Assembly (NCBI GenBank): GCA_965219415.1
Contig: CBDCNP010000002.1
Span: 2,784,001-2,848,000 of the forward strand
Reading direction: 5' to 3'
Origin: Candidatus Marinacidobacterales bacterium
GTDB lineage: Bacteria; Acidobacteriota; Vicinamibacteria; Marinacidobacterales; DATDRI01
DNA length: 64,000 bases
The notes beneath the pieces are model-generated. The model saw only the letters and a program-made list of their open reading frames with translations, ran no database searches and had not been told where the DNA came from. A program made the position numbers and the translations under genes. Below, in pieces: positions 5,680 through 62,032 of this stretch; the stretch's first letter is position 1; every line of letters begins with the position of its first letter.

Positions 5680-6030
5680 CTAGTGGCGCAACCTCTTCCT
5701 ACCGTTCGTCCCGCCGAGATGATCCGCAAGGCCGAGGAAATCTCCTCGCAACCGCTCGTCGCCGTTCAACAGCCGCCACGCGTTCAGCAGCCGACGCTCG
5801 CGGGGGTCGCCAGGCAGCGTCTTCTTTTTGTCCCGCTCGTCAGGGAGAAAGTAAGCCACTGGGGTATCCAACGCCTCAGAGATTTTCTGGAGCCAGTCGA
5901 GCGAGACGCGCCGGCGTCCCTTCTCGAAGTTGGTAAGTGCTCCCGCGGATATTCCGACCATCCGCGCTAACACCTTCTGGCGGATACGTTTACTCTTTCG
6001 CACGTCCCGAATCTTTTCTCCGACCCTCAA
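5680..6030 (-). CDS. XRE-family helix-turn-helix transcriptional regulator
   Basis: VGEKIRDVRK..Q..LA..VGIS...LTNFEKG.RR.SL..L.KIS.AL. Confidence 0.85.
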   Translation of the reverse strand: MRVGEKIRDVRKSKRIRQKVLARMVGISAGALTNFEKGRRRVSLDWLQKISEALDTPVAYFLPDERDKKKTLPGDPRERRLLNAWRLLNGDERLRGDFLGLADHLGGTNGRKRLRH

Positions 6031-10084: not shown

Positions 10085-11704
10085 ATGAAGCGCGTCATAC
10101 CGTACGTGGGATCGCTCGCCTGGGGAGTCCTCCTCGCTGGCCTGCTTATCCGGATGTTTCAGCCCGAACGAGAGAAACTCTGGTCGGCTTTCGTTCTGGC
10201 CGGTCTGGTGCTGGCCATCTTCTACCTCGGAACCCGGTGGCGAGACTTGCTCGTCCTCGCTCAAAAACGGGGCGCCCGATACGGCGCCAACTTGGGGCTC
10301 ATGATCCTGCTGGTCGCGGGACTCGTTGCCGGTATCAACTATCTGTCCAATCGTCACAACAAGCGCTGGGATCTCACGGGCTCCCAGCAATACACGCTGT
10401 CCGATCAAGCGGTCACCGTCCTCTCAAATCTCGACCGGGACCTCAAAGTCGTCATATTCGACCGTAAGGATAGCGCTCAAGTGGCACTCGATTTGTTGAC
10501 CGAGTTCGGCTACCACAGCAATCACATCTCCGTGGAGGTGGTCGATCAGGAGGCCGAGCCCGCCAAGACGTCCAAATACCGGACATCGACCGAGGCCAAC
10601 ATCCCCTTCGGAACCATCGTGCTCGACGCTGGAAACAAGGTCGAGAGGGTTACTTTCGCCACCGAGCAAGACCTCGTCAACGCCATCATCAAGGTCATCA
10701 AGGAGGAAAAGAAGAATATCTATTTCCTGGAGGGGCATGGAGAAAAAGACATCGATGACACCGAGATCGGAGTGTCGATCATCAAGACCAAGCTCGAGGA
10801 GTCGAACTACCAGGTGGCCAAGTTCCATCCCCTTCAATCGATGACGGAGGGGAAAATACAGTTCCCCGAAGATGCCACGGCTCTGATCATCGCCGGCCCG
10901 CAAAGAGATTATCTTCCAGCCGAGATCGATGCGTTGCGGGATTATCTGAACGCCGGGGGCAAGGTGCTCTTCCTGATCGATCCGGAAAACCAGGGTGAAA
11001 AGCCGAATCTGGTGGCGCTCCTCAAAGACTTCAACGTCGTGATGGAGAACAACGTGGTTATCGATGTCTCGGGGGTCGGCCAGCTCTTCGGTTTCGGCCC
11101 CGAGGTCCCGCTGGTCGCGAGCTACAGCGCGCATCCGATCACCGAAAAGTTCGCGAACGCTCCCACTGTCTACCCTTTCGTTCGCACCGTCGATTCTTCG
11201 GATTCCATGGCAGAAGGAATCACCGTCGACGCCTTGGTGAGCTCTTCCCCCAATAGTTGGGCGGAGGAGGATTTCGACGCCCTGGCCGAAGGGAGCGTCT
11301 CCGCCGACGACGGCGAACGTGAAGGGCCACTCGATCTTGCGGTCGCGATCACCATCGAAGTCGAAAAACCCTCTGAGCCCCCTGAGACTGACTCCGAGAA
11401 TGACCCCGCGGATGGCAGCAGCGATGCGGCCACGCCGCAAGGCCGCGCGGTGGTGGTGGGCGATTCGGACTTCATCGCCGACAGCTTGGTGGGAGCGCCG
11501 GTCGCGAACCTCGACCTCTTCATCAATATGGTGAACTGGATCGCCGAAGACGAAGACCTCATTTCCATCCGGCCCCGGGAGGCCGACGATCGGAGGATCT
11601 TCTTGAACGCCCAGCAGCAGAAAAACGTCGCCTACCTATCCCTCTTGTTCATTCCTGGATTGGTCTTGGTGGCAGGAATATCGGTTTGGTGGGGAAGAAG
11701 ATAA
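10085..11704 (+). CDS. GldG-like ABC-type uncharacterised transport component
   Basis: N-terminal TM helices, RWDLT...YTLS, YFLEGHGE, LIIAGP, VVGDSDF, N.DLF.N.VNW, C-terminal TM ending WWGRR. Confidence 0.85.
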   Translation: MKRVIPYVGSLAWGVLLAGLLIRMFQPEREKLWSAFVLAGLVLAIFYLGTRWRDLLVLAQKRGARYGANLGLMILLVAGLVAGINYLSNRHNKRWDLTGSQQYTLSDQAVTVLSNLDRDLKVVIFDRKDSAQVALDLLTEFGYHSNHISVEVVDQEAEPAKTSKYRTSTEANIPFGTIVLDAGNKVERVTFATEQDLVNAIIKVIKEEKKNIYFLEGHGEKDIDDTEIGVSIIKTKLEESNYQVAKFHPLQSMTEGKIQFPEDATALIIAGPQRDYLPAEIDALRDYLNAGGKVLFLIDPENQGEKPNLVALLKDFNVVMENNVVIDVSGVGQLFGFGPEVPLVASYSAHPITEKFANAPTVYPFVRTVDSSDSMAEGITVDALVSSSPNSWAEEDFDALAEGSVSADDGEREGPLDLAVAITIEVEKPSEPPETDSENDPADGSSDAATPQGRAVVVGDSDFIADSLVGAPVANLDLFINMVNWIAEDEDLISIRPREADDRRIFLNAQQQKNVAYLSLLFIPGLVLVAGISVWWGRR

Positions 11705-11705
11705 C

Positions 11706-13115
11706 ATGAGCCCCAAGACCACCATCTTGCTGGCCGTCATTTTCGCCGCACTGGCTGCATACATCTACCGCTACGAATGGGAGCCGGTCGAGACGGAGTC
11801 GAATCCCGATCGGGAAGCGATCTTCGAGATCGAAGCCGAGAAGATCCAGAGTATCCAAATCCGGAGGCAAGAGGGCGAGCACCTCCAGCTTGAACGTCGC
11901 GGCGAGGACGATTGGCAATTGTTGGCGCCGGTGGACGCCGCCGCCGACCGTACCGCCTCCGACTCGCTTGCGGAGAGCATCGCTACCCTCGAAAGTGAAC
12001 GGGTGATATCGGAGGGAGAAGCCAACCTGGCCGATTTCGGCCTAGACACCCCAAAGTTCGAGCTCGAATTTCAAGAAGTGGACGCGGAAACGACCACGAC
12101 GATTCACATCGGCGACGAGACTCCTATCGGTAGCAATCTCTACGCCCGGTTGGCCGACGGCGAGAAGATCTTCGTGATCGCCTCGAGCAAGGAATACGGC
12201 CTGAACAAAAAGGCTTGGGACCTCCGCGACAAGTCTCTTTTTCGATTCGAGCGCGACGAAGTGGAGAAGGTCATCCTGAAGCAAGCGGGTCGAGAGATCG
12301 TCCTGGCAAAAGCGGGTGGGGACTTTTGGAATATCGTGGAACCCACATTTTCTCGAGCCGATCGCTACAAGGCCGGCGGGTTGGTCTCCAAGTTAGAAAC
12401 GGCGAAGATGGAGGAGATCATCTCCGAGGCAGTCGAAGAATGGAGCGAATACGGCCTCGACGCACCCAGCTACCAGGTCGAGGTTCGGCTCGAGGGTGGC
12501 CTCACCGAAACCCTTCTCGTTGGCAAGGAGAAGGACAGCCGTTACTACGCACGCAACCCGGACCGTCCCATGGCTTACTTGATCGCATCGAGGCTAGTCG
12601 ACGACATCAAGAAGGAACCAGGCGAATACGTTTCTAAAAAACTCTTCGATTTCGCCACCTACCAAGTCAACAAGTTCCAGATTTCTTCGCCCGAGGGGCC
12701 GGACCGAATCGTCGAGAAGTTCAAGCAGGACGAACAGGACGTTTGGAAAGAGACCGCTCCCGAGCCTCAAGATCTAGACCGCACCAAGGTCGAAGACCTG
12801 CTCTATAAACTCAACGGAAGCGAGGCCGAGGAGACGCTCGCCGAGGGGCCGGGAGCAAGCCCGCCCGACTACACCATTACCGTATGGTCGAAGGACAGTA
12901 AGCAAGTCGAAGAAGTCGCGGTCGCGATATCGGAAGCCGACACAATCTACGCGCGTCGCAAGGGAGACGAGCTCGCCTTGAAGCTCAACCCCTCGAGCTG
13001 GGAAGAGATCGAAAAGCTAATGGCCTTCGAGGAGGAAGCCCCGCCGCCTGACGGGCCTGACCGGCATGACGGGAAAGACGACGAAAACGAGGATAAACAA
13101 GAGAGCGATCAGTAA
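11706..13115 (+). CDS. DUF4340-like membrane-anchored periplasmic protein
   Basis: N-terminal TM; repeated units W....P...AD / FGLD.P / YAR / LRDK.LF; usual neighbour of GldAFG-like modules. Confidence 0.7.
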   Translation: MSPKTTILLAVIFAALAAYIYRYEWEPVETESNPDREAIFEIEAEKIQSIQIRRQEGEHLQLERRGEDDWQLLAPVDAAADRTASDSLAESIATLESERVISEGEANLADFGLDTPKFELEFQEVDAETTTTIHIGDETPIGSNLYARLADGEKIFVIASSKEYGLNKKAWDLRDKSLFRFERDEVEKVILKQAGREIVLAKAGGDFWNIVEPTFSRADRYKAGGLVSKLETAKMEEIISEAVEEWSEYGLDAPSYQVEVRLEGGLTETLLVGKEKDSRYYARNPDRPMAYLIASRLVDDIKKEPGEYVSKKLFDFATYQVNKFQISSPEGPDRIVEKFKQDEQDVWKETAPEPQDLDRTKVEDLLYKLNGSEAEETLAEGPGASPPDYTITVWSKDSKQVEEVAVAISEADTIYARRKGDELALKLNPSSWEEIEKLMAFEEEAPPPDGPDRHDGKDDENEDKQESDQ

Positions 13116-15171: not shown

Positions 15172-15714
15172 CTATTTTTCTCCGGGTAGATACTTCCCGG
15201 GGATAGGTTTTTCTGGACTCTCGTTGACCCAGAAGATCGTAACGATCCACCAGCGATCGCCGTCCTTCAGAAGCTGAATGCTATTGATGCCGCGGCCGAC
15301 ATCCTCAGCGGGGGATCGGCGAGTCTCGTAGGTGCTGAACGCGTGGGTGATGTTTCCGAAACTCTCGGTGGTGCGGGCGACCTCGCTCTCGTAGAAAGCG
15401 TTCTCTTTGAAGTACCGACCAGAACCTTGAATGTAACCCTCGACCGTCGACACCCTCGCCTCGGCACCTCCGCCTTCTGTGCCACGGGTCGGAATGAGTC
15501 GGGCGTCCGGTGCAAAAAGAGAACGGGACCGATCCCAATCTCGATCCCCCGCCGGGCCAGAGATCACTTCATAGAGCGTCTCGATAATGGCGTCGATCGA
15601 AACGACATCGTCGGCGCGAGCGTCAGGAGGCTCCGCGTTCTCCTGTGCGAGAGACATGGGAGAGAGCAACGTACACGAGACGACAAAGGCGATTCCAAGC
15701 TGACAGTTCTTCAA
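15172..15714 (-). CDS. Secreted hypothetical protein (NTF2/SnoaL-like fold suspected)
   Basis: TTG start with GGAG RBS gives a signal peptide ending SLA-Q; core SIDAII..LY.VISGPAG.RDWDR..LF..FGNI.HAFSTYE..RGINSIQL..RWWI. Confidence 0.65.
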   Translation of the reverse strand: MKNCQLGIAFVVSCTLLSPMSLAQENAEPPDARADDVVSIDAIIETLYEVISGPAGDRDWDRSRSLFAPDARLIPTRGTEGGGAEARVSTVEGYIQGSGRYFKENAFYESEVARTTESFGNITHAFSTYETRRSPAEDVGRGINSIQLLKDGDRWWIVTIFWVNESPEKPIPGKYLPGEK

Positions 15715-15754: not shown

Positions 15755-16108
15755 TCAGTGACCCAGCTTCCTACAGTAGCCGCTGTTGTAGCAAGGTCGA
15801 TGCGGCTCGATAAGGCAGGGTTTCTGGAGCGGGAGGTCCATGTCCTCGTAGCAATCTGAGACCGCGGGGCCTTGGGCGATGGCGAGTTGCGAGGGATGGA
15901 CGGAGAGTTGGCTTGGTCCAGTCTCCCTCTCCCTTCCGCCTTCGCTAAAAGCTTCGGCGGACCCGCCGAAGTCGTTGGGACGGACACGGACGGAGGCGGG
16001 CCGGGAAAGGGGGCGAGCACCGGACGTCGGGCCGAGGCCCAATTTTTGCTCGAGCGCTTGCCGCACCAACGCACGGACCCTGTTGGGGTCGACGGAGCCG
16101 GAGCTCAT
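15755..16108 (-). CDS. Small BMC-locus protein: putative N-terminal encapsulation peptide plus C-terminal Cys/His cluster
   Basis: Start overlaps the stop of the upstream BMC-P gene. Amphipathic DPNRVRALVRQALEQKLG; C-terminal C..CLIEPHRPCYNSGYCRKLGH. Confidence 0.65.
   Translation of the reverse strand: MSSGSVDPNRVRALVRQALEQKLGLGPTSGARPLSRPASVRVRPNDFGGSAEAFSEGGRERETGPSQLSVHPSQLAIAQGPAVSDCYEDMDLPLQKPCLIEPHRPCYNSGYCRKLGH
15925..15972. repeat. Palindromic repeat copy inside a coding sequence
   Basis: CCCTCTCCCTTCCGCCTTCGCTAAAAGCTTCGGCGGACCCGCCGAAGT matches the reverse complement of 36685-36731 except GCTAAAAGC vs GCTGAAGC. Confidence 0.85.
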
Positions 16109-16374
16109 CCTAGATCCACGCTGTCGACCACGCCGACGATGGCGGCATCCACCGGCCCTGACGAGCGTCCCAACGCCTTGCCCGCGGCACGGCCTTCCAT
16201 GACGACGAGTACGCGGTCACCAACTCCTGCGTCCACCGAATCGATGGCCAACAATCGTCTCCCTTGTGGCGTACCCTCGAGATCGAGAGGTTGAACGAGG
16301 AGCAGCTTCCTTCCTTCCATCTTATAGTGCTTCACAGTGGAAACCACCGTACCCACCACCTCACCGATAATCAC
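16105..16374 (-). CDS. BMC vertex pentamer (EutN/CcmL family) #3
   Basis: G.VVGTVVSTVK, KLLLVQP, AIDSVDAGVGDRVLV, PVDAAIVGVVD. Confidence 0.93.
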   Translation of the reverse strand: MIIGEVVGTVVSTVKHYKMEGRKLLLVQPLDLEGTPQGRRLLAIDSVDAGVGDRVLVVMEGRAAGKALGRSSGPVDAAIVGVVDSVDLG

Positions 16375-16638
16375 TCACGAGTCCTCACGGTCCACCTTAC
16401 CCACGATCCCCACATCGGCGGGCACCTTGGAAGGAAGAAAAAGGAAGGAGGCTTCTTTGCCCCTCACGCAGAATACTTCTTCTCCGACCCCGACCCCGAC
16501 TCCGTCGAGCGCGATCAACGGCTCCCCTTCGGGAGCACCTTTCCCGCCGAGAGGTTGAACGATAAGAAGCTTGTGGGAGACGAGGCCGGCGTCTTTCATG
16601 GTGGCCACGACGTTGCCGATGACCTTGGCCACGAACAT
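16375..16638 (-). CDS. BMC vertex pentamer (EutN/CcmL family) #2
   Basis: AKVIGNVVATMK, KLLIVQPL, ALDGVGVGVGEEVF, PADVGIVGKVD. Confidence 0.92.
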   Translation of the reverse strand: MFVAKVIGNVVATMKDAGLVSHKLLIVQPLGGKGAPEGEPLIALDGVGVGVGEEVFCVRGKEASFLFLPSKVPADVGIVGKVDREDS

Positions 16639-16648
16639 AGCCTTCGTC

Positions 16649-16951
16649 TCAGTTCGACTGCGCGTGAGCCCCCGCCAGGGCGGCCGAGGCCAGCTCGATG
16701 GAGTCGATGATCCCCACCACTGCAGCGTCTACCGGCCGGTCCGTACAGCCCGTCGACATCCTCGCCGAACTGCCCGAGACCAGGAGCACCAGCTCGCCTA
16801 CACCAGCGTCCACGGTGTCCACGGCAACAACGTAGGAGTTTTTTTTCGCGCCGTCGGGCCCCACTGCCCGTACGACGAGGAGCTTGAACCCCTCCAGCTG
16901 CTCGTCCTTTCGGGTGGCTACGACCGTACCCACCACTCTACCCAGCGTCAT
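16649..16951 (-). CDS. BMC vertex pentamer (EutN/CcmL family) #1
   Basis: GRVVGTVVATRK, AVDTVDAGVGELVL.VSGSSAR, PVDAAVVGIID. Confidence 0.94.
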   Translation of the reverse strand: MTLGRVVGTVVATRKDEQLEGFKLLVVRAVGPDGAKKNSYVVAVDTVDAGVGELVLLVSGSSARMSTGCTDRPVDAAVVGIIDSIELASAALAGAHAQSN

Positions 16952-16977
16952 CGATTGAGCTCGTTATGCCTCGCAGG

Positions 16978-17277
16978 CTAAGACTTGGTGCTCTTTCCGA
17001 TCGGCAGGGCGTCCTCCAGGCTGGAATGAGGCCTCGGAATCACATGCACCGATATGAGCTCGCCGACCCGGCGGGCCGCTGCCGCTCCGGCGTCGGTTGC
17101 CGCTTTGCAGGCCGCCACGTCGCCTCGCACGAGTGCGGTGACATATCCGGCTCCAATCTTCTCGTAGCCAACGAGGGTGACTTTGGCCGCCTTGACCATG
17201 GCGTCGGACGCCTCGATCATCGCCACTAGTCCTCTGGTCTCGATCATTCCCAGCGCTTCACCTAAGGGTTCCGCCAT
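16978..17277 (-). CDS. BMC shell hexamer (EutM/PduA-like BMC-H)
   Basis: [10 protein letters not shown]...[34 protein letters not shown]; strong GGAGG RBS. Confidence 0.96.
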
Positions 17278-17372
17278 GATTCCTCCCTAATCCTCCTCGG
17301 TAGTATTGCCCAATTTAGTTTTGTCGTGTTCTTGTAACACAGTTCCCATTCGTTCCGTAATCGTTTGCCCGG

Positions 17373-18194
17373 CTACGCGGTGCGGGCACCTCCGACGGCT
17401 CGAATCGCGTCGGAGATCAACGTCACCAGCTCGTCTCGCGACAGTTGGATCATTTCGTTGCCATCCACGCCCGCGGCCGCACCAGCGGTGGTACTGAAGG
17501 AACCGGCCCCCTCGGCCGGGACAGGACACGCCTCTCCTCCCGGCGGCCCTTCGAGCTTGTAGACTCCCTTGCGAAGGGAGAGCAGACGCGACACCTCGGA
17601 CTGTGGAAGCAACCTCTCTCCCCCTAACAATCTCGACATGAAACTGATCTCGGCGAAATGCTCCACAACCTCCATCTTGTAGTAGGCGTCGAGAATCTCT
17701 TTACCCACGGTCAAGGCGCCATGGTTCGACAACAGGAGGCCGTCACTGGTTCGTATCAGGCGATCCACGGAATCGGCCAGCTCCTTCGTGGAAGGCGTGC
17801 CGTACTCCGCCAGGGGAACGCAGCCCAAAGTGACGATGACTTCGGCGAGCACGGCGCGATTGAGGGGGACTCCCGCAACCGCGAACGCAGTCGACTTCGG
17901 TGGATGAGCGTGAACCACCGCCCGGACGTCCGGGCGCGCTCGGTAAACCGTTAGGTGCATCTCGATCTCGGTGGAGACACGCAGCGCTCCATCGATCCGC
18001 TTGCCCGAAAAATCACAGGAGACGATCATGTCCGGTGTGAGGTAGCCCTTACACGCTCCCGCCGGCGTCGACAGAACTTCTTCTTCCGAAAGCCGAATGC
18101 TGACGTTCCCCTCCATCGCCGCTATGTAGCCATGTTGGTACAGACGACGACCCACCTCACAGATATCTTCTTTGAGCTCTTCGCGTCGCTTCAC
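17373..18194 (-). CDS. Class II aldolase (FucA/adducin family) with C-terminal putative encapsulation peptide
   Basis: EGNVSIR, TPAG.CKG, STEIEMH..VY..RPDV.AVVHAHP, LLSNHG. Gly/Ala linker then SRDELVTLISDAIRAV. GTG start overlaps the upstream TGA. Confidence 0.9.
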   Translation of the reverse strand: MKRREELKEDICEVGRRLYQHGYIAAMEGNVSIRLSEEEVLSTPAGACKGYLTPDMIVSCDFSGKRIDGALRVSTEIEMHLTVYRARPDVRAVVHAHPPKSTAFAVAGVPLNRAVLAEVIVTLGCVPLAEYGTPSTKELADSVDRLIRTSDGLLLSNHGALTVGKEILDAYYKMEVVEHFAEISFMSRLLGGERLLPQSEVSRLLSLRKGVYKLEGPPGGEACPVPAEGAGSFSTTAGAAAGVDGNEMIQLSRDELVTLISDAIRAVGGARTA

Positions 18195-18466
18195 GTCGCA
18201 CTCACCTGAAACGCTTGCCGGCAGTTCTCGGAACAAAAGTGTTGGACTTCACTGCCGTGTTGCTCGGCGATGGCCCGCTCTTTGGGCACGAAAACACCGC
18301 ACACTGGGTCGCGAACCATCTGGCCCCGATAGATGGGCTTGGCCGAGCCGACTCCCGGAGAGCGTCCCACTTGCTGCCTTTCGGCCCCCCCCAACCAACG
18401 AGAGAGTACTCGAAAGACGTAGCGAACCACGTACATGAGCGCGATGAACTGAAGGAGACGCCCCAT
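18191..18466 (-). CDS. Membrane-anchored YHS/TRASH metal-binding protein
   Basis: N-terminal hydrophobic helix; MVRDPVCG..V..HFCSENC. Confidence 0.8.
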   Translation of the reverse strand: MGRLLQFIALMYVVRYVFRVLSRWLGGAERQQVGRSPGVGSAKPIYRGQMVRDPVCGVFVPKERAIAEQHGSEVQHFCSENCRQAFQVSAT

Positions 18467-18473
18467 GGCTTTG

Positions 18474-19079
18474 CTAGTTGGTATGAGCGGACTTCAGTGC
18501 TTCCAGCTCATCACTAATGCTGCTGGCTTCGCGTGAGTTGGGGGCGACCCGCGTGAGCTCCTCCCAAGCTTCGAGCCCCGCACGAATGTCTTGCTGCGCG
18601 TACAGTCTCACTCTTCCCAATCCCAGAAGCGCTTGAGCGTTTCCCGGTGCACGAGCGAGTACCGCCTGGTACTCGGAGATGGCTTCCTCGACGCGTCCGA
18701 CGTTAGCCAACGATTGCGCATAGTGGGTTCGGGCATGAACATTATCGGGCTCTCGCTCGAGCGCCTGGCGAAGCCATGAAATCGCCTCGTCATCGTGGCC
18801 AGCCTCTAAGTAAAGATTACCGAGCCGAACCCGTGCGCTATTGTCCGCGGGATTCCGCTGAAGCACACTTTCGAGTGCGGCAACTTCTTGGCGATCCAAC
18901 ACCCGCCGCGGGGGAGGTTGCGTAGCTCCATCCGGGCTTCCGAAGCCGCCTTGGCTTCCTATGTGGGTCGCCATGGAAACATTACCAGAGTCCTGAACGA
19001 CACTCTCGAACGCGAAATAGCCCAAAAGCACTCCGAACGCGAGTCCAGTCAAGAAGAAAACGGCATTGTCTTTTCTCAT
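18474..19079 (-). CDS. Membrane-anchored TPR protein
   Basis: N-terminal TM; tandem TPR helices (ARVRLGNLY, A...L..AL...PDN, AI..Y..VL...PGN..ALLGLG). Confidence 0.8.
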   Translation of the reverse strand: MRKDNAVFFLTGLAFGVLLGYFAFESVVQDSGNVSMATHIGSQGGFGSPDGATQPPPRRVLDRQEVAALESVLQRNPADNSARVRLGNLYLEAGHDDEAISWLRQALEREPDNVHARTHYAQSLANVGRVEEAISEYQAVLARAPGNAQALLGLGRVRLYAQQDIRAGLEAWEELTRVAPNSREASSISDELEALKSAHTN

Positions 19080-19109
19080 CGCCTTCAGGGGCTTTCAGGA
19101 AAAGCCAGT

Positions 19110-20633
19110 CTATCTGTGCCTAGCCGCGGGAGTCAACAGGCTCGGACCGGCGTGAAACCCACTATCTCTAAAGGGTTGGAGCCACGACATGAAACCGGTG
19201 GCGAGAAAGCCGAGCTGGAATAGAACCAGGAAGGGCAACATGGCGAAGATCTCGTGGGAGATGGCATAGGCGACGGTGGCGGTGAAGTAGAGACCGAGAG
19301 CGATCTCGACCGCGGGAAGATAGCTGCGGGCACCGCGATACGTCTTGAGCCTCCAGCTGTCCCGCGGCGATTCGATTCGGTACTTCGGCGTCCGAACGAA
19401 GGGGGTCTCGCGACCCGCCAGACCCTCTAGAACCGCGCGACCGTTGTTGACGCTCATACCGATCCCCATCGACAACAAGCAGGGAATGCAACGGAGCCGC
19501 TCCTTCCAGTCGGGATAGATCTCCCTTTGAGAAACGACGTAAAACGTTGTGACCGAACATGTCGCGGCGAGAAACAAGGGGATGTCGACCAGGAGCATTT
19601 CCTGCCACCCCATGTTGTAGCGAACCAGCATGGACGGAAACATCAACAAGGACAAGACCACCATCAGGGGATACGCCAAGTTGGCGGTCAAATGGAAGAC
19701 CGCTTCGGTCTTCACGCCGAGCGGCAAGCGGCTCGCGAGCAAACGCAGGAGCAATTTCTTGGCGGTTTGGATGGATCCCTTGGACCAACGGTACTGCTGA
19801 CTCTTGAAGCCGTTCATTTCCACCGGTAGCTCGGCCGGACAGATCGCGTCGGGAAGAAAGATGAATCGCCAACCCTTGAGTTGCGCACGGTAGGAGAGAT
19901 CCATGTCTTCGGTCAACGTGTCATGCTGCCAGCCACCGGCGTCTTCGATGGCCGACGCCCGCCACACCCCGGCCGTCCCGTTGAAATTAAAGAAACGGCC
20001 GGAGCGGTTCCGCGCTCCGTGCTCGAGTACGAAATGAGCATCGAGAAGGATCGATTGCACGCGGGTTAGCAACGAGTACTCGGAGTTGATATGACCCCAC
20101 CTCGCCTGCACCATCGCCACGTCGGCGGCCTGGAAGTGAGCCAGTGTGGCGCGGAGAAAGTCGCGAGGCGGGACGAAGTCGGCGTCGAAGATGGCAACAA
20201 ACTCTCCCCGAGCACGCGAAAGCCCCGCTCGTAAGGCTCCTGCCTTGAAGCCCCGCCGATCCTTACGGTGGATATGGTGAATATCCAAGCCTCGACTGCG
20301 ATAGTCAGCGACTCTTCGTCTAACTATCTCGGTAGTCTCATCGGTGGAATCATCGAGAACCTGAATCTCGAGAAGCTCCTTGGGATAGTCGAGCCGCGCC
20401 GCGGCGTCGATGAGCCGCTCCACCACATACATTTCGTTGAACAACGGCAGTTGTACCGTTACCACCGGAAGCTCCGCCAGGGGTAGCGGGTCCGAGTTTT
20501 CTAGTGAGGAAGGCTTCTTGTCCCGGTACTTGTAATATAGATAGACCATCATGTACCGGTGGCATCCGAAGATCGCCAACACAATGAGCACAGAGAAGTA
20601 CAGTATTAGAATGGCAGCGTCGATAGGGCTCAT
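19110..20633 (-). CDS. Processive GT2 glycosyltransferase (cellulose synthase-like/CslA type)
   Basis: QLPLFNE, DDSTD, GFKAGAL, FDADF, TEDMDLSYR, QQYRW (QxxRW); multiple TM segments. Confidence 0.92.
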   Translation of the reverse strand: MSPIDAAILILYFSVLIVLAIFGCHRYMMVYLYYKYRDKKPSSLENSDPLPLAELPVVTVQLPLFNEMYVVERLIDAAARLDYPKELLEIQVLDDSTDETTEIVRRRVADYRSRGLDIHHIHRKDRRGFKAGALRAGLSRARGEFVAIFDADFVPPRDFLRATLAHFQAADVAMVQARWGHINSEYSLLTRVQSILLDAHFVLEHGARNRSGRFFNFNGTAGVWRASAIEDAGGWQHDTLTEDMDLSYRAQLKGWRFIFLPDAICPAELPVEMNGFKSQQYRWSKGSIQTAKKLLLRLLASRLPLGVKTEAVFHLTANLAYPLMVVLSLLMFPSMLVRYNMGWQEMLLVDIPLFLAATCSVTTFYVVSQREIYPDWKERLRCIPCLLSMGIGMSVNNGRAVLEGLAGRETPFVRTPKYRIESPRDSWRLKTYRGARSYLPAVEIALGLYFTATVAYAISHEIFAMLPFLVLFQLGFLATGFMSWLQPFRDSGFHAGPSLLTPAARHR

Positions 20634-20672: not shown

Positions 20673-21969
20673 ATGAAGAGCCCGGAGAGGGATTGGCTCG
20701 TCCTGACTGCGGGAGGTTGTGTCTTGGTGGTCCTCGCGCTCTGGGTCGCGAATCGGATAGATCTCCAAAACGGCTTCCCCTCCTTTCTCTTCGGCTATCT
20801 GGCCATGTCGGCGGTCTACGTCGTTGCGGTCTACTACGTGCTACACCATACCTACCGGGCCCACAATCGCCGGGGACTCCTTGTTTGGACGGTCGTTGTG
20901 GCCATCGCGCTGCGAGCGATCTTTCTCTTTACCCCACCGGCGCTTTCGGACGACATCTATCGCTATGTTTGGGATGGCCGGGTCCAAAAGAATGGATTGA
21001 ATCCCTACGCGCACGCTCCCGCAGCTCCCCAACTAGAGCACCTGCGAGATCCCACGTACGAGAGCATCAACAATAAGGAGCTCCCCACGATCTACCCGCC
21101 GATGATGCAGGTGGTCCTCCTGGCCGTGGCCACGCTTTCGGAGAGTGTCCTCGGGATGAAGGCGGCTTTCGTTTTGATAGATGTTGCGCTCATCGCAATA
21201 CTGGTGATTCTCCTCACCGCCGCCAATCATAGCCCACTGCGAGCTCTCATTTACGCCTGGAGCCCCCTGACCATCGTCGAAATTTGCGGGGAGCGGCCAC
21301 AACGACGTCCTGATGATGGCCTTTCTCATGGCCGGGCATGCCGCGGTCTTGCTCAAGAAGGATATGCTGTCAATATGTCTCGTCACGTTGGCGGGCCATG
21401 CGAAGTTGATGGCATTTGCGCTGCTTCCATTCTTCGTACGTTGCACCCGACCCCTTGCATGGCTCGCGATTCCCTTAGCGAGTCTAATACTCCTCTTTCC
21501 CTACCGCGGCGTGACCCCGGAGTCTTTCGATGGCCTATTCGCATATGGCCTGAGATGGCGAGCCAACGACAGCCTCTTCCACGTCTTGTATTCGTTGACC
21601 GGTTCCCTCGACTTTTCGAAGCTCATCGCGGGGGCGGCGGTGGCGGCGCTCATTGGTGGGCTCCTATATCGCCGCGTTCCACCCCTTCGCGCGAGTTACC
21701 TTACGATCGGCACCATCCTTCTGCTGTCGCCTACCGTACATCCCTGGTACGTCATGTGGCTGGTCCCTTATCTGTGTTTCTTCCCGAGCCCGGCCTGGCT
21801 CTTGCTCACCGCCACCATCGCCCTTTCCTACCACGCCCCGTTCCTCGCATCTCCAGGTGAGCCGTGGAAGGAACTGACAGGTTTCAAGGTCCTCGAATAC
21901 GCGCCTTTCTTCTTGCTCGCGGGTTGGTCCGCCTTCTCGCGAAAACATGATATAGTCAGCGGCTCCTAA
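20673..21969 (+). pseudogene. Polytopic GT-C (GT87/DUF2029-like) glycosyltransferase, frameshifted at about 21283 (extra T; possibly sequencing error)
   Basis: LSDDIYRYVWDG, NPY, TIYPP, YAWSPL in the 5' ORF. Removing one T in GAAATTTGCGGGG restores EIAGSGHNDVLM and joins the 3' ORF (SPTVHPWY). Confidence 0.8.
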
Positions 21970-58929: not shown

Positions 58930-59072
58930 GGGTCAAGAGTAGCAACGAGCCACTGACCGGTCAAAAACGGTGTCAAGTCTGGTGGATATACTCTATAATG
59001 ACTCTTTCACATTCACGTTTACTCGACGGTCGCGTTTCGTCGCCCAGCGAAGTGAATCCCAAAGGAGGCACA

Positions 59073-60884
59073 TTGGGAGGGCACAAGCCAAAGCGTAAAG
59101 AAAGCTCGAAGGCGCGAAAAGGATCGAAATCCAAGAAGAAGAAGGGGGCGGCTTCTAAAGGTTCCTTGCGCGTCGTCAAAGGCAAGTCGAAACAGATCGA
59201 GCTGCCGCTCACTGCCAAGGAGCGAAGAAAGCGATCTTCGCTAAAACTCGTAAGCCCCCCGAAGAATGCCGACAAAGCGGCGGAGCCCGCGACTGCCCAA
59301 CCGGCGAAACAGACGGGGCCCAAGAGTCCACCCCGAGTCTCTGCAGAAACTCTCGCCACCCGGCAACGCGAAATTTCGGTATCCGAGTTCTTCACTCGGA
59401 ACCGTCATCTCCTAGGATTCGATAATCCACAAAAGGCGCTGCTGACGACAGTCAAAGAAGCCGTGGACAACTCCCTCGACGCGTGTGAAGAAGCCGGTAT
59501 CTTGCCCGATCTCGAGGTGACGATAGAGACTCTGGCCGAAGACCGATTCCGCATTGCCGTTCAGGACAACGGCCCGGGCATCGTAAGGGCCCAGATCCCG
59601 AAGATCTTCGCCAAGCTGCTCTACGGCTCCAAGTTTCACACTTTGAAGCAAAGCCGCGGCCAACAAGGCATCGGCATCTCTGCAGCTTCCATGTATGGCC
59701 AACTCACGACCGGCAAACCTGTAAAAATCTGGTCGCGAACCGGAAAGAAGAAGCCGGCTCACTATTATGAGATGCATATCGACACCCGGACTAATCAACC
59801 CGAGGTCGTCAAGGACGATAAGCTCTCGAGCTGGAACCTCGACCACGGAACGCGGGTGGAGATCGAGCTCGAGGGCACCTACAAGAGAGGCCGACGCTCG
59901 GTCGACGACTACATCGAGCAAACGGCCATTGCTAATCCGCACGCTTCGATCAAATACATGCCCCCCGGCGGGGAGGCGGTGATTTACGAGCGTGCCACCA
60001 AAGAGCATCCGCGGGAAACGGTCGCGATCAAGCCCCACCCTTACGGGGTCGAACTGGGTGTGTTGATCAAGATGCTCAAGGAAACCCGCTCCCGCTCCCT
60101 CAAAGGAGCACTCATGGACGACTTCTCCCGTGTCTCCTCCAAGGTGGCCAACCAGATCGTCGAAAAGGCGGGACTTCGACCGGAGAACCGCCCGAAGAAA
60201 CTCTCGCGGGTTGACGTCGAGAAGATCTTTCGCGCCATCCCGGCGGTGAAGATCATGGCCCCTCCCACCAACTGCCTAGCCCCCATCGGTGAGGAAGCCA
60301 TCGTGTCCGGCCTCAAGAAACGGATCGAGGCCGATTTCTACGAGGCGAGCACTCGCTCACCGAGCGTCTACCGTGGCAATCCTTTCCAGGTCGAGGTCGG
60401 GGTGGCGTACGGAGGCTCTTTGGCGGCGGAAGAGCTGGCCGATGTTTTTCGCGTTGCCAATCGGGTCCCGCTTCAGTACCAAGCCTCGGCTTGCGCCATC
60501 AGCAAGGCGGTCATCGGTACCGATTGGAGGAACTACGGGCTCCAGCAGTCACGCAGTGCCGTACCGACCGGACCCATGATTCTGTTCGTTCACATCGCCT
60601 CGGTCTGGGTGCCCTTCACTTCTGAGAGCAAGGAAGCCATCGCACATTACCCAGAGATACTGAAAGAGCTCCGCCTGGGCCTCCAGGAAGTCGGAAGGAA
60701 ACTCGGCGCCCACATCCGACGGAGGAAGCGAGAAGCGGCGGAGACCAAGAAGCTGGCATACATTCAAAAGTACATCCCGCAAATCGGGATTGCATTGCAG
60801 GACATACTCTCCTTGACCAACAAGCAACGGGACAAGACGGTCAAGGTGCTCACCGACACGCTGGAGAGGAGTCGCAAGGTATGA
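59073..60884 (+). CDS. top6B: DNA topoisomerase VI subunit B
   Basis: [52 protein letters not shown] (GHKL), [26 protein letters not shown] start with GGAGG RBS. Confidence 0.95.
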
Positions 60885-62032
60885 GAGCCACCCAGGCCAA
60901 GCGCTACGCCGCCGACGTAAAGCGAAAGAACAAGCGGCTAGATCAGAACACGCTCAAGCTCATCAGCGGGACGGCGGACGAGACGAATCGGAAGATCCTG
61001 AGACGCGGCAAACCCGATTTGAAGTTCCCCGTTCGGTCGCTCTCTAACGTCAGCTATTCGAAACGAAGCGGCTATCTCGAGATCGGAAAACAGAAGAAAG
61101 TGCGAACGCTCACGGTGTCCACGGTGAAGACCTTTGCGCAAACGCTTCGCATGATGTCGCTCTCCAAGAATCTCATCGAAACCAACGACTTCGCCACCAA
61201 ACGAGACGCCTACTACCAGTCCAAGAACTGGGGCGACGCCGGATTCCAGGAGCAAACCGAGTCCGATACGGTCATGGACGACATCGAAGCGATGTTCTCC
61301 ATGCACAAAGTGAGTCGAGAGCAACTCCGGTTCACTCCCGACGAGCATGGCGGCGCCGTGGCCGGCCAGCTTGTTGTCTACGACCCCGATATCGAGACCG
61401 GCGCGGTGGAGCGGATCGATTGCACCCGTTTCGGCTCCGGCGCTTACTCGATCCCGAGCTCGGTGGAACATTTATCGTTCGAGACAAACGCCAAGTTCGT
61501 CCTCGCCATCGAGACCGGTGGCATGTTTCAAAGGCTGCAGAGCCACAAGTTCTGGCAGAAGGCCAAATGCATTCTGGTATCGATGGGAGGGGTGCCAACG
61601 CGCGCCACCCGCCGTTTCATCCGCAAGCTTTCCGAAGAGGCGAAGATTCCGGTGTACGCTTTCGTTGATTGCGATCCTTACGGCATCTCCAACATCTACC
61701 GCACGCTCAAGGTGGGTTCCGGAAACGCCGCCCACATCAATCAATTTTTCTGTGTCCCGAGCGCCCGCTACCTAGGGGTGACACCTCAGGATATTCGGGA
61801 CTACAAGCTCCCGACCCACCCACTCAAAGAGGTCGACATCAAGCGCGCCAAAGACGCCCTCAAGAACGATCCTTTCTTCAAGGGCGAGCCCGCTTGGACA
61901 CAAGCCATCACCCAATTGTTGAAGATGGGGGTGCGCGCCGAACAGCAGGCCCTGGCGAAGTGGGGGTTGAACTACGTACTCGAGGAATACCTTCCGCAGA
62001 AACTGAAGAAGGCGAGCAAGTTCCTTCCCTGA
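60881..62032 (+). CDS. top6A: DNA topoisomerase VI subunit A (Spo11-like)
   Basis: T.RDAYY (catalytic Tyr), F.EQ.ESD, IETGGMF, GVP.RATR, DCDPYG TOPRIM, AEQQAL; overlaps the top6B stop. Confidence 0.95.

Follow-up and report, generated by a model that had tools for sequence, protein, structure and literature searches.

The 64,000-nucleotide stretch of DNA analysed here (hereafter the window; positions 2,784,001 to 2,848,000 of contig CBDCNP010000002.1) belongs to an uncultured bacterium of the class Vicinamibacteria (Acidobacteriota) and carries a compact cluster of genes for the shell and cargo of a bacterial microcompartment (BMC). We consider it likely that this cluster is the main locus of a microcompartment of the ACI type and that it works along the lines proposed below. 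On this reading, the window holds a dehydrogenase-less form of a catalogued type and not a new kind of system. The ACI type was defined by Sutter, Melnicki, Schulz, Woyke and Kerfeld (2021, Nat Commun 12:3809; PMC8217296), whose text lists it as a major type of 125 loci, present only in Acidobacteria and mainly in subdivisions 4 and 6. The main locus described there encodes an aldolase of pfam00596 that ends in an encapsulation peptide, a pfam00389/02826 hydroxyacid dehydrogenase, one hexameric shell protein (BMC-H) whose interface motifs are standard, and, in neighbouring genes, three pentameric shell proteins (BMC-P). It also encodes three proteins without known homologs; one of these, of about 80 aa, has an encapsulation peptide at its N-terminus and conserves three cysteines in its C-terminal part, and another protein, of unknown family, has three conserved histidines. 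According to the same text, the ACI aldehyde dehydrogenase (pfam00171, with an encapsulation peptide near its C-terminus) resides in a satellite locus in most ACI genomes (PMC8217296).

The window matches this description in its aldolase with a C-terminal helix, its single BMC-H, its BMC-P triplet, its cysteine protein and the absence of an aldehyde dehydrogenase from the main locus. Six genes had been placed on the minus strand by the initial annotation, which was made from the sequence and its open reading frames (ORFs): an aldolase, one BMC-H, three BMC-P and an ORF of 117 aa. Pfam scans of 60 ORFs of the window and the ORF map bear out all six at their coordinates. The BMC-H gene (16978..17277, minus strand, 99 aa) matches PF00936 with an E-value of 1.4e-29. 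Among solved structures of natural proteins it is closest to EutM (E 5.9e-41), followed by the Haliangium ochraceum shell hexamer HO-5815 (5djb, E 1.2e-37), with the engineered BMC-H tandem fusion 6ner scoring above both. Its K29 lies in a KAAK motif, and PRPH is found at residues 81-84. The three pentamer genes follow in tandem on the same strand, all matching PF03319: paralog 1 (P1; 16649..16951, 100 aa, E 5.5e-31), paralog 2 (P2; 16375..16638, 87 aa, E 3.2e-24) and paralog 3 (P3; 16105..16374, 89 aa, E 2.9e-28). They share 40-47% pairwise identity, in agreement with their initial description as divergent, and P2 is the most divergent of them, with 40% identity to P1 and 43% to P3. By their structure matches, P1 is nearest to the standard pentamer of Haliangium ochraceum (HO; 5v74, E 1e-23), while P2 (best match EutN 2hd3, E 1.3e-11) and P3 (best match 5v74, E 1.8e-15) are more divergent. 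A tblastn search of the window with shell proteins returned these four genes only, and no trimeric shell protein (BMC-T).

The presumed signature cargo enzyme is a class II aldolase of the FucA fold (17373..18194, minus strand, 273 aa; PF00596, E 6.7e-46). Its start is most likely the GTG at 18194 rather than an upstream TTG, because the N-termini of its homologs begin there in an alignment of 26 homologs. Across this alignment E76, H95, H97, H158, G29-N30, T43 and S74 are invariant, and they align with 5-deoxyribulose-1-phosphate aldolase bound to dihydroxyacetone phosphate (DHAP; 6btd/6btg). Judged by these residues, the enzyme keeps the zinc- and phosphate-binding positions of the fold and is a zinc-type class II aldolase. 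Close homologs, at 70-91% identity, are from Acidobacteriota or Vicinamibacteria where they are named. AlphaFold models a core (residues 1-212), a linker at very low confidence (214-251, pLDDT <50) and a terminal helix (253-268; 17391..17438, minus strand), which we take as a predicted encapsulation peptide. The linker varies in length and sequence among the homologs and the helix is conserved: L256, L259, I260 and A263 are invariant, and R265 is kept in at least 90%. The tail singled out in the initial annotation, SRDELVTLISDAIRAV (residues 252-267), thus stands as a conserved, helical segment.

The last gene of the cluster (15755..16108, minus strand) encodes a small cysteine-rich protein of 117 aa with an N-terminal helix, a variable disordered linker and a C-terminal cysteine motif, a layout that the aldolase mirrors with its core, linker and terminal helix. 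By this predicted architecture it is the ACI cysteine protein of the catalogue. The motif reads C86-x11-C98-x7-C106-x5-C112 and ends in GH; an alignment of 24 sequences shows C98, C106 and C112 without exception, and C86 in at least 90%. The fourth cysteine shifts by clade, with C-x11-C-x7-C-x5-C here and C-x7-C-x2-C-x2-C in most of the more distant loci (group B, see below). Three universally conserved cysteines with a fourth at a clade-specific position suggest that the protein carries a metal or iron-sulfur site. Its 41 homologs are 64-132 aa long, and those that are named come from Vicinamibacteria. It has no match in Pfam or NCBIfam, and a Protein Atlas search returned just unnamed Acidobacteriota clusters (scores 0.86-0.88), with no functional lead. 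A search for longer, fused forms of the cysteine-rich domain, for example on the tail of an aldehyde dehydrogenase, found none, and is weak evidence. AlphaFold places the N-terminal helix at residues 8-23 (16040..16087, minus strand; pLDDT ~92 over residues 11-20), followed by a disordered linker and a remainder of low confidence. Within this helix, a candidate encapsulation peptide, V15 and L19 never vary, and conservation is at least 90% for R12, A13, L14 and R16, in the conserved segment VRALVRQALE. The two helices have the common consensus L-x-A-L-[VI]-x-[DE]-A-[IV], which fits a common receptor for the aldolase and the cysteine protein.

Several functions expected of better-known microcompartments are missing from the window. 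Pfam scans found no PF00171, PF00389/PF02826, PF06130, PF01515 or PF00465 domain and no PF00936 or PF03319 gene beyond the four described, and two tblastn seeds, one a hydroxyacid dehydrogenase and the other an aldehyde dehydrogenase from a BMC, matched nothing there. The initial claim that aldehyde dehydrogenase, alcohol dehydrogenase, phosphotransacylase and BMC-T are all absent is therefore correct for the window (by Pfam for all, with iron alcohol dehydrogenase and PduL- or Pta-type phosphotransacylase as the families looked for, and by tblastn for aldehyde dehydrogenase and the shell genes). In terms of the canonical PDU, EUT and PVM core, the signature enzyme stands alone, with no aldehyde dehydrogenase, phosphotransacylase or alcohol dehydrogenase in the 64 kb. 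The further claim that no regulator is present is right for the neighbourhood of the locus and wrong for the window, which encodes an HTH_3 protein at 5680-6030. We recognised no candidate in the window for the three-histidine protein, for which the catalogue text supplies no sequence or position (PMC8217296).

To place the locus among its relatives, the aldolase alignment was used to scan one genome per species, which gave 454 confirmed matches; the loci compared here are the best 80 of them. Gene content was read from seeded tblastn and motif searches; longest-ORF calling and ORF clustering were unreliable, since they produce spurious long ORFs in this GC-rich DNA. The acidobacterial arrangement is found in 78 of the 80 loci, and the other two (L068 and L075) are Firmicutes loci of a different BMC type. 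In these, the aldolase lies beside three BMC-H, one BMC-P, an aldehyde dehydrogenase, a PduS-like protein and an acetate kinase (10001-17059 in L068). The core of the window's aldolase is 52% identical to the aldolase of these Firmicutes loci, which indicates that BMC-associated aldolases form a group of their own; the Firmicutes enzyme and the group-B ACI aldolases are equally near to that of the window.

Two groups can be told apart among the acidobacterial loci. Group A (L001-L008, with L001 on the closed chromosome OZ240210.1, and including a Candidatus Marinacidobacterales chromosome, class Vicinamibacteria) has aldolases 70-76% identical to that of the window and shares its full gene order, consisting of a GT2 gene, a gene for a protein with tetratricopeptide repeats (TPR), a YHS-type gene, aldolase, BMC-H, P1, P2, P3, cysteine protein, dinB and proC. 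In group B, mostly Vicinamibacterales, the aldolases are 46-59% identical to the window's, and the block from TPR to P3 is followed variably by the cysteine protein and a hydroxyacid dehydrogenase, then by an endonuclease III-like gene and, further downstream in the inspected loci, by QueE- and QueC-like genes (named from their N-terminal sequences). The block TPR-YHS-aldolase-H-P1-P2-P3 thus recurs in 78 acidobacterial loci, with outer flanks that differ between the groups. The BMC-H of the window is 81-94% identical to its counterparts in related acidobacterial loci, and of the 73 loci in which a pentamer gene was matched, 65 keep the order P1-P2-P3. Three Vicinamibacterales loci (L031, L070 and L073, at ~11200-11800) have only two pentamer genes, the P2 paralog being missing; they also have no detectable TPR gene or hydroxyacid dehydrogenase, and represent a further reduced sub-form.

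Four loci with the same TPR-YHS-aldolase-H-P-P-P arrangement are labelled as other taxa, namely Dehalococcoidia (L005, on a 1.25-Mb contig), Gemmatimonadaceae (L049), Bifidobacteriaceae (L066) and Acidimicrobiia (L069), and two more (L028 and L065) are labelled 'uncultured bacterium'. The non-acidobacterial labels are probably binning or labelling errors; otherwise, the ACI type would not be strictly acidobacterial.

Accessory genes were scored where the sequence continues for at least 2.5 kb past the last pentamer gene, which holds for 62 loci; 16 loci that were too short were left out. All seven assessable group-A loci have the cysteine protein and no hydroxyacid dehydrogenase (none with both, with the dehydrogenase only, with neither, or with a dehydrogenase fragment). 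Among the 55 group-B loci, 28 have both genes, 11 the dehydrogenase only, 10 the cysteine protein only and five neither, and one has a dehydrogenase fragment. The hydroxyacid dehydrogenase is therefore present in 39 of 62 loci, fragmentary in one and absent from 22, and the content of the window (cysteine protein, no dehydrogenase) recurs in 17 of 62 and is fixed in its own clade. Since the dehydrogenase varies among clear relatives, we do not treat it as defining, and regard it as a frequent accessory of the ACI type. Where present in group B it belongs to PF02826/PF00389, and among NCBIfam families it scores best for glyoxylate reductase, with 333 bits where 455 are required. No aldehyde dehydrogenase was detected by tblastn within ~10 kb of any of the 78 related acidobacterial loci; the seed for this search was the L068 enzyme, and both control loci (L068 and L075) were matched. 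This result agrees with the second option of the initial annotation, a main locus that depends on satellite loci. A PROSITE-like pair of aldehyde dehydrogenase motifs was discarded, as it had zero matches anywhere and missed even the true L068 and L075 enzymes.

These comparisons change how the locus should be described. The initial annotation called it minimal, and yet ACI main loci as a rule have a shell set of one BMC-H and three BMC-P and do without an aldehyde dehydrogenase; the sole real reduction is the missing hydroxyacid dehydrogenase, which is common among relatives. It also let the locus end at the aldolase, and so missed two conserved and tightly coupled upstream genes. The first of these (18474..19079, minus strand) encodes a 201-aa TPR protein with an N-terminal transmembrane segment, which matches TPR Pfam families and scores 43.8 bits against a cut-off of 42 for TPR_CcmH_CycH, and it opens the conserved block. 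The second (18191..18466, minus strand) encodes a 91-aa YHS/TRASH-type protein with an N-terminal membrane segment and a conserved RDPVCG...FCS..C motif, which keeps three cysteines and not three histidines. The YHS Pfam score of the window copy is below threshold (17.5 bits), while its ortholog in L001 passes (44.8 against 30.3); the match to NCBIfam PP0621 is also below threshold (32 against 45).

Counting the 75 related loci with enough upstream sequence, a TPR homolog is found in 68, a YHS/TRASH homolog in 68 and both together in 61, directly upstream of the aldolase. The YHS stop codon lies between -10 and +70 nt relative to the aldolase match in 66 of 69 loci. Because the outer flanks differ on both sides between groups A and B, the two genes appear, by this synteny, to belong to the conserved block and not to the surrounding chromosome. 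Their membrane segments make them unlikely cargo. They may serve the compartment, through metal supply, anchoring or regulation, or may merely be co-transcribed neighbours. Neither is mentioned in the text or in Supplementary Data 2 or 6 of the catalogue, the parts compared here, with its locus diagrams outside the comparison (PMC8217296). In one locus (L032, 9078-9962) the two read as a single ORF of 294 aa, which is either a natural fusion or the result of a lost stop codon.

From the TPR gene to the cysteine-protein gene, eight ORFs run head to tail on the minus strand (15755-19079). The TPR and YHS genes are separated by 7 nt; the YHS and aldolase genes overlap by 4 nt (the YHS stop TGA and the aldolase start GTG read as GTGA); and a gap of 95 nt, which includes a Shine-Dalgarno-like GGAGGA, lies between the aldolase and BMC-H. 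Gaps of 26 nt (BMC-H to P1), 10 nt (P1 to P2) and 0 nt (the P3 start abuts the P2 stop) follow, and the P3 stop and the ATG of the 117-aa ORF share a 4-nt overlap (ATGA). Given gaps of 0-95 nt or overlaps of 4 nt, the eight genes likely form one operon. A sigma-70-like site (TTGACT-18-TAGACT; 19107..19136, minus strand) lies ~30 nt ahead of the TPR start, inside the 3' end of GT2; it is a weak candidate promoter, with three such sites in the region against 1.4 expected, and is the sole one on the operon strand near the block. A terminator scan found no convincing terminator 3' of the cysteine-protein gene, and an Rfam scan of the window found one tRNA only and no riboswitch near the operon.

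We propose that the single BMC-H and the three BMC-P paralogs would form the facets and vertices of a shell, into whose lumen the two terminal helices would recruit the aldolase and the cysteine-rich protein. The aldolase would split a ketose-1-phosphate, of the fuculose-, rhamnulose- or (deoxy)ribulose-1-phosphate kind, into DHAP and a reactive aldehyde, which may be lactaldehyde, glycolaldehyde or acetaldehyde. By analogy with other ACI genomes, the aldehyde would then be oxidised by an encapsulated acylating aldehyde dehydrogenase encoded elsewhere, and the cysteine-rich protein would bind a metal or iron-sulfur centre. In the window's clade, which lacks the glyoxylate-reductase-like hydroxyacid dehydrogenase, cofactor recycling would be encoded elsewhere or not needed.

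A number of results weigh against this assignment or against its details. The pfam00389/02826 hydroxyacid dehydrogenase that the catalogue lists for ACI is absent from the window by both Pfam and tblastn. The aldolase stays under all equivalog cut-offs of NCBIfam (OtnC scores best, with 128.8 against 250), and it is 26-30% identical to FucA, DrdA and YgbL alike; being equally distant from all three and below all cut-offs, it leaves the substrate a guess. The fold search shows that the same fold also includes decarboxylases and non-haem iron oxygenases, and Pfam scans of the window's ORFs showed no fucose or rhamnose isomerase or kinase. The C-terminal domain of the cysteine protein is modelled at a pLDDT of only 55-59. 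In a crude shuffle test of hydrophobic moment the two helices are not unusually amphipathic (1055 of 5000 and 2593 of 5000 shuffles reach the observed value), and the amphipathic character initially ascribed to the aldolase tail is thus not significant by this measure. Finally, a limited literature search found neither experimental work on the substrate, product or shell of ACI compartments nor a characterisation after 2021.

The first option of the initial annotation was a self-contained compartment, in which the genome would have no encapsulated aldehyde dehydrogenase and the shell would confine the aldolase and its cysteine-rich partner. The absence of an aldehyde dehydrogenase from the 64 kb agrees with it, as do the loss of the hydroxyacid dehydrogenase from the window's clade (7 of 7 assessable loci), which could indicate a pared-down pathway, and the five group-B loci with neither accessory gene. 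However, most ACI genomes keep a peptide-bearing aldehyde dehydrogenase on a satellite locus, according to the catalogue text (PMC8217296), so that its absence near a main locus is expected and says little. An aldehyde producer in a shell without an aldehyde sink has, moreover, no known precedent among metabolosomes, and we find this explanation improbable. It is very doubtful, too, that this is a decaying locus, or that it is what remains of, or a satellite to, another known type (PVM, PDU, HO or FRAG) with its core elsewhere. PVM and HO do also pair a class II aldolase with a BMC-P triplet (PMC8217296), but the signature enzyme, the basal hexamer, the whole pentamer triplet and the ACI-specific cysteine protein are all present here; the first three of these mark it as a main locus and not a satellite. 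Decay is further contradicted by the ORFs, which are all intact and strongly conserved across the eight group-A loci (87-94% identity for BMC-H and 70-76% for the aldolase).

A different function for the enzyme itself would make the compartment a metal- or redox-centred organelle, in which the 'aldolase' is a decarboxylase or non-haem-iron enzyme and the cysteine-rich, YHS/TRASH and TPR proteins handle metal or electrons. The fold search lends this some colour, with the iron enzymes pyruvic oxime dioxygenase, TqaM and NovR, as well as YgbL/OtnC, scoring similarly to FucA; the best NCBIfam match is the decarboxylase OtnC; the conserved block includes a TRASH-type protein and a protein with three or four conserved cysteines; and the catalogue notes that metal binding may matter in ACI (PMC8217296). 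The invariant G29-N30, T43, S74, E76 and three histidines nevertheless align with a DHAP-bound aldolase, and the YHS and TPR proteins have transmembrane segments and are unlikely to be luminal; their linkage could be simple synteny. We judge this organelle to be decidedly improbable. A related extension of the ACI assignment, which we hold to be unlikely and put forward tentatively, is that the conserved unit extends beyond the ACI locus as catalogued and has the handling of metal or redox equivalents at its centre, with the genes for the TPR protein and the membrane-anchored TRASH/YHS protein co-transcribed with the aldolase and the small three- or four-cysteine protein in the lumen. If so, this small protein would be an iron-sulfur or metal centre that acts as an electron relay or as a metallochaperone for the aldolase-fold enzyme, and the dehydrogenase-less marine clade would use a scheme for cofactor recycling or aldehyde handling unlike that of any characterised metabolosome. 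We retain the ACI main locus, with an aldehyde-generating aldolase, as the preferred reading.

The surroundings of the operon are an ordinary chromosome, with the dcw cell-division cluster, dnaG, rpoD, mutS2 and topoisomerase VI among other genes. Between the cysteine-protein gene and dinB lies a gene for a 180-aa, secreted-looking protein (15172..15714, minus strand), which was tried and rejected as a cargo candidate: its N-terminus resembles a signal peptide, none of the 80 related loci encodes a homolog, and its sole Pfam hint is a weak DUF4440 match (13.6 bits). It looks like a lineage-specific insertion outside the compartment. Subunits B and A of topoisomerase VI, an enzyme better known from archaea and plants, are encoded at 58998-62032 on the plus strand. 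Two overlapping plus-strand ORFs (20673-21860 and 21313-21969), neither with a Pfam match, are each membrane-protein-like over part of their length, and are probably one gene frameshifted near 21.3 kb, either by a sequencing error or as a pseudogene.

Acidobacteria are one of the most abundant phyla in soil. The initial annotation saw in this locus the best candidate for an uncharacterised system in the window; it is right in that we found no bench work on ACI, and overstated in that the type is already catalogued. The acidobacterial aldolase-type loci to which it refers, catalogued without a demonstrated function, correspond to the ACI type (PMC8217296). The window adds little that is new in kind, and its value lies elsewhere. 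It offers a compact construct of eight genes (TPR, YHS, aldolase, BMC-H, P1-P3 and cysteine protein) from a clade without the hydroxyacid dehydrogenase; the counts show that this dehydrogenase and the cysteine protein are variably present ACI accessories; and the TPR and YHS/TRASH genes are two conserved upstream genes for any functional study to include. The single hexamer with a three-paralog pentamer set is also a convenient minimal system for asking why BMC-P triplets exist, a question raised in the catalogue (PMC8217296).

Among known systems, PVM resembles the window in pairing a class II aldolase that generates an aldehyde with a BMC-P triplet (PMC8217296), and PVM-like/GRM5 loci likewise use a class II aldolase as the aldehyde-generating enzyme; these compartments serve the catabolism of fucose and rhamnose. 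Both, however, encode the aldehyde dehydrogenase within the locus, and L068 has in addition a PduS-like protein, an acetate kinase and several BMC-H, none of which is in the window; phosphotransacylase and acetate kinase are listed among the PVM homologs in the catalogue's table of hidden Markov models (PMC8217296). The ACI aldolase is described there as nearest to those of HO and MIC3, and not PVM. The HO compartment shares with the window one basal BMC-H, a BMC-P triplet and a class II aldolase, and the window's BMC-H and P1 are near the solved HO shell proteins 5djb and 5v74. HO, whose function is given as unknown too in the catalogue text, differs in having BMC-T trimers and an aldehyde dehydrogenase of its own and in occurring in Myxobacteria (PMC8217296), whereas the window has no BMC-T. 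At the level of the enzyme, FucA, DrdA (6btd) and YgbL/OtnC (6vop) have the same fold as the window's aldolase (TM-score ~0.8, normalised to the target) and the same metal site of three histidines and a glutamate, together with the phosphate-site residues, but lack its linker of ~60 residues and its targeting helix. ACI itself is the closest comparison. The standard BMC-H interface motifs are KAAN and (P/A)RPH (PMC8217296), of which the window has KAAK in place of KAAN, and PRPH; its small protein has 117 aa against ~80, the difference being due to a longer linker; and it shares with ACI its acidobacterial relatives (Vicinamibacteria, subdivision 6).

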